Source: a virus
Lineage: Duplodnaviria > Heunggongvirae > Uroviricota > Caudoviricetes
Direction: 5' to 3' (one strand)
DNA length: 64,000 nt
IMG/VR virus record: IMGVR_UViG_637000265_000001
Shown: positions 6,771 through 8,020 of the stretch, piece by piece
How the letters are laid out: every line of letters starts with the position of its first letter
Position numbering within the stretch: the first letter of the stretch is position 1
Notes under the pieces: generated by a model
Seen by the model: the letters and a program-made list of their open reading frames with translations, nothing else
Database searches by the model: none
What the model was told of the DNA's origin: nothing
Program-made: the position numbers and the translations under genes

Positions 6771-6842
6771 TGAAGTGGCACACTGAATTTGGCCACCTGA
6801 ACAGAGGTGATATGCTCACCTCAGAACAACACAGGTGCTCCA

Positions 6843-7145
6843 ATGAAAAAAAGAAATTTTAGCGCAGAGTTTAAACGCGAATCCGCTCAACTGGTCGTTG
6901 ACCAGAAATACACGGTGGCAGATGCCGCCAAAGCTATGGATGTTGGCCTTTCCACAATGACAAGATGGGTCAAACAACTGCGTGATGAGCGTCAGGGCAA
7001 AACACCAAAAGCCTCCCCCATTACCCCGGAACAAATTGAAATCCGTGAGCTCAGGAAAAAGCTACAACGCATTGAAATGGAGAATGAAATATTAAAAAAG
7101 GCTACCGCGCTCTTGATGTCAGACTCCCTGAACAGTTCTCGATAA
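6843..7145 (+). CDS. IS911 OrfA
   Basis: 100 aa [25 protein letters not shown]...; A6G slippery motif near the 3' end. Confidence 0.85.
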
Positions 7146-7171
7146 TCGGGAAACTCAGAGCGCATTATCCT

Positions 7172-8012
7172 GTGGTCACACTCTGCCATGTGTTCGGGGT
7201 TCATCGCAGCAGCTACAGATACTGGAAAAACCGTCCTGAAAAACCAGACGGCAGACGGGCTGTATTACGCAGTCAGGTACTTGAGCTACATGGCATCAGC
7301 CACGGTTCGGCCGGAGCAAGAAGCATCGCCACAATGGCAACCCGGAGAGGCTACCAGATGGGACGCTGGCTTGCTGGCAGGCTCATGAAAGAGCTGGGGC
7401 TGGTCAGCTGTCAGCAGCCGACTCGCCGGTATAAACGTGGTGGTCATGAACATGTTGCTATCCCTAACTACCTTGAAAGGCAGTTCGCCGGTGACCGAGC
7501 CAAATCAGGTGTGGTGCGGTGATGTGACCTATATCTGGACGGGTAAGCGCTGGGCGTACCTCGCCGTTGTTCTCGACCTGTTCGCAAGAAAACCAGTGGG
7601 CTGGGCCATGTCGTTCTCGCCGGACAGCAGGCTCACCATGAAAGCGCTGGAAATGGCATGGGAAACCCGTGGTAAGCCCGGCGGGGTGATGTTCCACAGC
7701 GATCAGGGCAGTCATTATACGAGCAGGCAGTTCCGGCAGTTATTGTGGCGATACCAGATCAGACAGAGTATGAGCCGGCGCGGAAACTGCTGGGATAACA
7801 GCCCAATGGAACGCTTCTTCAGGAGTCTGAAGAACGAATGGATGCCGGTGGTGGGTTACGTAAGCTTCAGCGAGGCAGCTCACGCCATAACGGACTATAT
7901 CGTTGGATATTACAGTGCACTAAGACCGCACGAATATAACGGTGGGTTACCCCCAAACGAATCGGAAAATCGATACTGGAAAAACTCTAACTCGGTGGCC
8001 AGTTTTTGTTGA
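7172..8012 (+). pseudogene. IS911 OrfB transposase, frameshifted
   Basis: DDE transposase split into two overlapping frames (7172-7522 and 7437-8012). Confidence 0.65.
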
Positions 8013-8020
8013 CCACTTCA

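Follow-up and report, generated by a model that had tools for sequence, protein, structure and literature searches.

The IS911 element at positions 6771-8020 very probably marks a fossil recombination joint between two decayed prophages of Shigella flexneri. An IS911 disrupted a P22-like large terminase gene (terL) between nucleotides 459 and 460 in an S. flexneri ancestor, as an old and single event, and the DNA to its left was lost to lineage-specific extents, each of which ends exactly at an IS911 tip. The junction is very probably an IS911-mediated deletion joint, superimposed on an older IS911 that lay inverted at terL. The resulting joint has no function, and it represents ordinary IS-driven prophage decay in a published genome. 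The compared material consisted of one window, which is the whole stretch of 64 kb presented here, and 20-kb loci of other genomes. Over its first 12 kb the window matches CP000266.1 (S. flexneri 5 str. 8401) with 100% identity, starting from about position 235,520 of that record.

IS911 belongs to the IS3 family and was first described in Shigella dysenteriae (X17613), and its simple insertion produces a 3-bp, rarely 4-bp, direct target duplication. The element studied here is a complete IS911 on the plus strand with the size of 1250 bp that is quoted for IS911 in PMC4924310. Its end points, which a sequence-only reading of this DNA had placed at 6771 and 8020, were borne out by nucleotide identity over the full length, direct reading of the ends and Pfam. 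It is 98.9% identical at the nucleotide level, over the full 1250 bp, to E. coli copies annotated in RefSeq as 'IS3-like element IS911 family transposase', and 99.5-99.8% identical to other S. flexneri copies. The first bases are TGAAGTGGCAC (also read as TGAAGTGGCACAC) and the last bases are GACCACTTCA. Alignment of the two ends delimits imperfect inverted repeats of about 36 bp, namely IRL at 6771-6806 (TGAAGTGGCACACTG...) and IRR at 7985-8020 (...GTTGACCACTTCA), in which the eight outermost bases are identical; the tip sequence TGAAGTGG is found at both ends, in agreement with the TG...CA terminal rule, and the two repeats differ at the ninth base, which is G in IRL and A in IRR.

The first gene, orfA (6843-7145, plus strand, from the ORF list and Pfam), encodes 100 aa with an HTH_Tnp_1 domain (Pfam E = 3.8e-14), and the exact orfA protein is present in 1840 blocks of the public collection. 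Reading of the sequence places an A AAA AAG slippery site at 7094-7100 on the plus strand, where a programmed -1 frameshift leads to the OrfAB product. After this shift OrfAB runs uninterrupted for 389 aa in the M90T allele of the same locus and for 226 aa in the window copy, where the stop lies upstream of the DDE core. The frameshift in orfB that had been seen in the sequence-only reading is indeed present: when the window copy is aligned pairwise with 10 junction copies and with 9 copies from elsewhere, an extra G (GG) stands out at 7490-7491, which splits orfB on the plus strand into an HTH_21 part (7172-7522) and an rve catalytic core (7437-8012; ORF list and Pfam). The element resembles IS911 of X17613 in its length, its TGAAGTGG...CCACTTCA ends, its A6G -1 site and its HTH and rve (DDE) domains, and it differs from it in the lack of a 3-bp duplication, in the extra G that breaks orfB, and in a 9-bp inverted fragment of an IS911 end that abuts IRR. 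As judged from its sequence, it is a family member by descent that is predicted to be non-autonomous and apparently cannot encode its own transposase. The missing 3-bp duplication is a property of the insertion event and not of the element.

The window IS911 has no target duplication, and the earlier statement that the triplets cgc (6768-6770) and gcc (8021-8023) on its two sides are not a direct repeat holds. However, the gcc is IS-derived and does not belong to the terminase flank. The nine bases that follow IRR, GCCACTTCA at 8021-8029, are the reverse complement of nucleotides 1-9 of IRL, that is, an IRL tip on the minus strand, and at the ninth base, where the two repeats differ, they agree with IRL. 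With these nine bases set aside, the flanking triplets become cgc versus cct, and there is still no duplication. The description of the right flank as opening inside terL is correct from 8030 onwards, but not for 8021-8029. In the intact gene, two alleles of which were read, the sequence across the breakpoint is ...TGGAAGAAGTCT/CCTTTCTTTCC; the lost part, terL nucleotides 1-459, ends in ...AAGAAGTCTCCT (...GGAAGAAGTCTCCT), and the CCTTTC of the window, which starts at 8030, corresponds to terL nucleotide 460 and codon 154. We considered that the nine bases might be native terL (GCCACTTCACCTTTC at nucleotides 451-465); this was ruled out, as both intact alleles read GAAGAAGTCT before CCTTTC. 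The same nine bases recur in the independent assemblies 8401, M90T, L007, L009 and L022, and 2457T, L010 and L003 have a complete IS911 in inverted orientation, with its IRL tip directly beside this CCTTTC. We therefore read the nine bases as the putative relic of an earlier, oppositely oriented IS911. Their first three bases, GCC, are also readable as rha-derived, the intact rha sequence being CAC-GCC-TCG across the break, in which case 6 bp of IS tip would remain.

Nucleotide identity, Pfam and junction mapping agree that 8030-9070 on the plus strand holds codons 154-499 of a P22-like large terminase. The gene has 498-499 codons in the E. coli P22-like prophages to which the fragment is 98.5% identical at the nucleotide level. 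The claims that this terL is truncated and that terS is missing are confirmed, the fragment starting at codon 154 and no terS being present beside it. The claim that the TerL ATPase domain was lost proved only partly right. The first 153 aa, including Walker A (GNQLGKS), are gone, but the fragment keeps Terminase_6N profile positions 68-214 of 215 and the Walker B-like VWFDEE; it also keeps Terminase_6C positions 1-154, and the C-terminal RNaseH-like nuclease domain is complete. The fragment is a pseudogene piece of a P22-like (Lederbergvirus-type) TerL, in which a full-length ATPase plus nuclease is no longer present. The 354-aa 'terminase' ORF at 8006-9070 begins inside IS911. Downstream, ORFs and Pfam delimit a P22-like virion module at 9071-20692 on the plus strand, with portal, scaffold, coat, gp4, gp10, gp26, gp14, gp7, gp20 and gp16. 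Every ORF in the module is open, its right end is cut by IS elements, and it is 97% identical to phages APC_JM3.2, Dewey and IME10; exact matches to its portal protein are found in S. flexneri chromosomes only. Having lost terS and the TerL segment with Walker A, the P22-like head module is unable to package DNA.

On the other side of the IS, the minus-strand gene that had been described as of unknown function is on the minus strand as stated, but it is identifiable as the C-terminal part of a Rha-family gene. The fragment (6436-6770) comprises the C-terminal 110 codons and the stop of a Rha-family regulator, with 93-97% nucleotide identity to Rha-annotated genes of E. coli. An intact E. coli homologue has 234 aa with Phage_pRha at residues 12-102, and is about 97% identical to the window fragment at the nucleotide level over the shared part. 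The fragment lacks the N-terminal portion of about 124 aa, hence Phage_pRha (PF09669), and its only Pfam match, to ANT/KilAC, is below threshold; the left-flank ORF is a fragment of a Rha-family member. At its breakpoint the intact gene continues as ...CACGC/CTCGACG, and the lost N-terminal side reads CGCCTCGACGATTAGC from the break. A search for intact rha in Shigella by protein search and contig look-ups brought up S. flexneri P0020/L014 and P0017/L015 as candidates for the ancestral rha state; both were rejected, being paralogous island copies with 90-93% nucleotide identity at other loci.

The rha fragment belongs to an island remnant (3995-6770, minus strand) that also encodes a 405-aa protein, a DUF6971 protein and a 64-aa protein, and was delimited by homology to E. 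coli tRNA-Gly islands. These genes make up the distal part of a small integrative island. Its homologues lie at chromosomal tRNA-Gly in E. coli LR-64-1 and 21AR0133. The integrase side of the island is lost, and in these two E. coli strains the homologues are next to actS/xdhA. A paralogous Rha/DUF6971 island is found downstream of Q in another S. flexneri lambdoid prophage, and the island may represent a phage satellite whose attachment sites are phage tRNA genes. Adjacent to it is a lambda-like prophage remnant (1242-4017, minus strand), recognized by phage and E. coli prophage matches, with a holin, a lysozyme, Rz and a 172-aa ORF, and cut on the left by an IS2 (1-1241). Island and phage homologies overlap at 3995-4017, a 23-bp att fragment corresponding to the 3' end of a tRNA-Gly gene of the phage, which lies upstream of the holin and into which the island is integrated. 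ARAGORN found no tRNA gene in the window, which fits the 3' fragment alone being left. The lysis cassette (holin-lysozyme-Rz-172-aa ORF) is 100% identical, up to the IS2 boundary, to the prophage of E. coli PEC41, where the identical cassette has a Q/tRNA cluster on one side and terminase, portal and tail genes of lambda type on the other. Since the cassette has a lambda-type context and terL is P22-type, the two flanks of the IS911 derive from different prophages, the left one with a nested island.

Other observations concern this left remnant. Within window positions 1580-3482, 8401 is 96-98% identical to its close relative M90T in the lysis cassette (compared loci L007, L009, L021 and L006), and the 8401 cassette has a 186/195-aa ORF instead of a DUF1327 gene, which suggests allelic replacement by another lambdoid phage inside a dead prophage. 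In other S. flexneri loci, the DNA beyond the position of the IS2 contains type VI secretion genes (TssF, TssG, ImpA and ImpE), some of which are interrupted.

The flanks thus come from different elements, and intact homologues of neither run across the IS, so that the proposal of an IS-mediated rearrangement in place of a simple insertion is upheld. Comparison with terL of intact P22-like prophages, which had been suggested as a check, revealed neither a direct repeat nor contiguous terminase sequence on both sides of IS911. The other suggested check, for reciprocal junctions at further IS911 copies, was negative: rha-N or terL-N beside IS911 was found neither in the 64-kb window, in which there is no second IS911 copy, nor in the 20-kb loci of 12 S. 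flexneri genomes, nor at nine other IS911 copies. Four of nine other complete IS911 copies (eight of the nine from one S. flexneri genome) also lack a 3-4 bp duplication, so such joints seem to be common in S. flexneri.

The history of the joint can be read from other S. flexneri genomes. The terL breakpoint, ...CA/CCTTTC, is common to all those examined (8401 and ten further loci), and the left junction varies, with positions corresponding to 6770, 4855, 1578 and about 1594 of the window, as does the orientation of IS911. The junctions fall into five types. In type A (8401, M90T, L007 and L009), rha is joined at position 6770 to a plus-oriented IS911, followed by GCCACTTCA and terL. In type B (2457T and L010), position 4855 is joined to a minus-oriented IS911 whose IRL tip touches the CCTTTC of terL; a second, plus-oriented IS911 at 1576-1578 is a simple insertion with TCT duplicated. 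In type C1 (L004, L008 and 2002017), position 1578 is joined to a plus-oriented copy and then terL, and in type C2 (L003) the same position is joined to a minus-oriented copy and terL. Finally, in L011 a position of about 1594 is joined to a plus-oriented IS911, itself interrupted, and terL. The C1 copies have the SNP signature of the left copy of type B and the C2 copy has that of its right copy; C1 and C2 look like type B minus one IS and the 2.6-kb spacer, with end points that would lie in the identical 8-bp tips.

Between the two lineages there is hardly any difference in the DNA to the right of the IS (8030-13500), in favour of a single ancestral event at terL. The shared terL breakpoint, together with the differing IS orientations and left flanks, indicates that the junction is old and was repeatedly remodelled by IS911-associated deletions. 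The IS911-terL joint is present in no complete E. coli genome of the collection. Further to the right, 162 SNPs separate the type A group from the others and are concentrated at 14000-18500. Nearly all of them lie in gp10-gp26-gp14-gp7-gp20, with portal, scaffold and coat nearly identical, which suggests that 14000-18500 is a mosaic block acquired by exchange with another P22-like phage once the terminase had been lost.

Two rare variants of the window IS911, the G at 7425 and the extra G at 7490/91, recur only in the junction copy of CP182555.1 (L003, at 7710-8959 of that locus), and both are absent from M90T and from nine other IS911 copies. The L003 copy is inverted and stands on the other right-flank haplotype. 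The sharing between 8401 and L003 could be due to gene conversion, or the variants could be an ancestral state that was later erased elsewhere. The signature T6896/T6970/A7425/G7499 was also tried as a test of descent of the plus-oriented copy from the minus-oriented one; it is the common S. flexneri allele and is uninformative.

We propose the following course of events for the type A joint. The ancestral IS911 would have stood in the opposite orientation, its IRL tip in direct contact with terL; 2457T retains this arrangement, and both the state of types B and C2 and the 9-bp relic of type A point to it. In the serotype-5 lineage (8401 and M90T), a plus-oriented IS911 would then have come to lie within the old IRL, 9 bp from its tip. 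The old copy would have been removed together with all DNA as far as the middle of rha (position 6770) in the lambda-like prophage and its island. This removal might have occurred by homologous recombination with a plus-oriented IS911 inserted in rha, by a deletion in a head-to-head IS pair with its end points in the identical 8-bp tips, or by a transposase-made adjacent deletion, and any one of these three routes is only tentatively plausible. The product would be truncated rha, IS911(+), the 9-bp IRL relic and truncated terL without a target duplication, and the 8401 copy would later have gained the extra G that destroyed its transposase. The proposed intermediate, be it a head-to-head IS pair, an IS911(+) in an intact rha, or a minus-oriented IS911 joined to position 6770, was found in no genome, so the order of events and the deletion route are inferred.

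A simpler origin of the joint would be one-step recombination between two simple insertions of IS911(+) in direct repeat, one in rha and one in terL, with no earlier inverted copy. This is the commonest route to IS copies that lack duplications, S. flexneri has many IS911 copies, of which four of the nine sampled are without a duplication, and cgc and cct would each be one half of an original duplication. Nevertheless, we consider it unlikely, as it accounts neither for the nine bases of inverted IRL tip between IRR and terL, for which the chance expectation is about 4e-6 (nine specified bases), nor for the inverted IS at the same breakpoint in sister lineages, and it is refuted as the whole story. 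Such recombination may be the last step of the favoured scenario, the deletion built on an inverted IS911 at terL.

The sequence-only reading had left the choice between deletion and inversion, and the lambda-type left prophage and the 9-bp IRL remnant favour the former over a single inversion. An inversion would have happened within one P22-like prophage, an inverted IS911 pair, with one copy in rha upstream of the lysis genes and the other in terL, flipping the segment from the lysis genes through terS to the start of terL, and IS2 later removing the reciprocal joint. The geometry is suggestive, since the lysis cassette and island point leftward and terL and portal rightward, as in one flipped Q-rha-lysis-terS-terL-portal prophage, and the paralogous island mentioned above lies downstream of Q in another S. 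flexneri lambdoid prophage. However, the E. coli prophage with the 100% identical lysis cassette has lambda-type and not P22-type terS/terL, portal and tail genes; homologous inversion keeps the IS ends with their outside flanks and explains neither the two orientations at terL nor the 9-bp relic; and the reciprocal joint is absent from the window and the loci read. We find a single inversion quite unlikely.

A mis-joining of contigs by the repeated IS in the 8401 genome has a negligible probability. IS copies are a classic cause of mis-joins in older Sanger assemblies and this genome dates from 2006, but the identical joint and relic are found in the independent assemblies M90T (CM001474.1), JANXIZ01 and CP026799.1, and draft contigs that break inside the IS also agree. 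Equally negligible is the idea of a simple insertion that lost its 3-bp duplication through point mutation, for which nothing more than the short length of the duplication can be said and which is refuted by the different genes on opposite strands at the two sides, the rha sequence CTCGACG... and the terL sequence ...GAAGAAGTCT being absent from the opposite side of the IS.

It is conceivable, although doubtful, that the S. flexneri lineages form a natural series of IS911 orientation switching in place. In such a process a trans-mobilised copy would reinsert into an IR tip of its own or a resident copy and give a head-to-head pair, which would collapse by a deletion between 8-bp tips to one copy in either orientation with the outer junction unchanged. 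The same tip-to-tip deletion would yield both single-copy derivatives of the 2457T-type inverted pair. If true, this would be a transposase-independent route to duplication-less IS copies and to nested 'adjacent' deletions.

The inferred steps have partial counterparts in known systems. Composite transposons such as Tn10 and Tn5 undergo a 'nearly precise excision' that is stimulated by inverted repeats. In a similar way, the inverted IS911 pair of the 2457T type brackets 2.6 kb, and its derivatives keep exactly one IS and lose the other together with the spacer; for IS911 such an excision is proposed from sequence comparison, and deletions made by transposase would give the same products. When IS911 targets its own ends, the new copy reportedly inserts beside an end and does not enter it, so that tips come to stand side by side, and the position 9 bp inside the old IRL is not a textbook product. 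The targeting of IS911 ends by IS911 goes back to Loot et al. (2002) and Turlan et al. (2004), as cited in PMC9333248. The type A joint has in common with the IR targeting by copy-out-paste-in elements (IS30 and IS911) that a second IS911 end is found at the end of a resident IS911 and that such an arrangement seeds further rearrangements. It differs in that the products reported there join IRL and IRR tips, whereas here the new IRR is 9 bp inside the old IRL, head to head, with the rest gone.

The genome paper of S. flexneri 8401 ties the inversions and the translocation of this strain to IS elements (PMC1550401). The rearrangements listed there are larger than 5 kb and are mediated by IS629, IS1, IS4, ISSfl2 and IS600; IS911 does not occur in that paper (0 occurrences) and the rha-terL joint is not mentioned in it, although the neighbouring SfV remnant in SHI-O is described. 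The present joint resembles the IS-mediated prophage erosion between Sf8401 and Sf301 in that an IS stands at the joint of unrelated DNA, modules are cut at IS ends and there is variation from strain to strain; unlike the rearrangements listed in that case, which exceed 5 kb, it involves IS911 and not the other elements. Beyond the annotation, where the 354-aa 'terminase' ORF and the Rha fragment can be corrected, the value of the finding is small, with the 9-bp relic and the orientation polymorphism as minor points of interest to IS specialists. The loci do provide a natural series for IS dynamics, with one fixed breakpoint, five left junctions, two orientations and a 9-bp relic, which could be used to ask how IS911 pairs make deletions in Shigella.

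In the rest of the window, the right end of the P22-like module is occupied by an IS cluster (20680-22916) that contains an IS3-family element with ORFs of 108 aa and 296 aa (IS629-like). This element is flanked by a fragment of 85 bp (20680-20764) that repeats, in inverted orientation, the end of a partial second IS (22832-22916), so that this cluster holds another short inverted IS-end relic beside a whole IS. IS copies also form an inverted repeat of 468 bp, 99.8% identical, at 22450-22917 and 63533-64000, and between its arms lie the SfV-like late genes, the gtr genes and a lambdoid early/lysis region. The 468-bp repeats may be the end points of the inversion around SHI-O that the 8401 genome paper describes as mediated by IS629 (PMC1550401).

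The SfV/SfI/SfII-like late region (22917-41945) starts at about phage coordinate 1870, its terminase region having been lost at an IS, and both virion modules in the window are thus decapitated at their packaging genes. Further to the right, gtrA and an integrase gene are adjacent at 41318-43102, about 260 bp apart, with no tRNA-Thr detected there. This gtrA-integrase order is the unintegrated, attP-like one, and 41318-43102 looks like a hybrid att between tandem prophages. The homology to the SfV family stops at 41945, and the int/early/lysis region to the right of that position therefore belongs to a different prophage.
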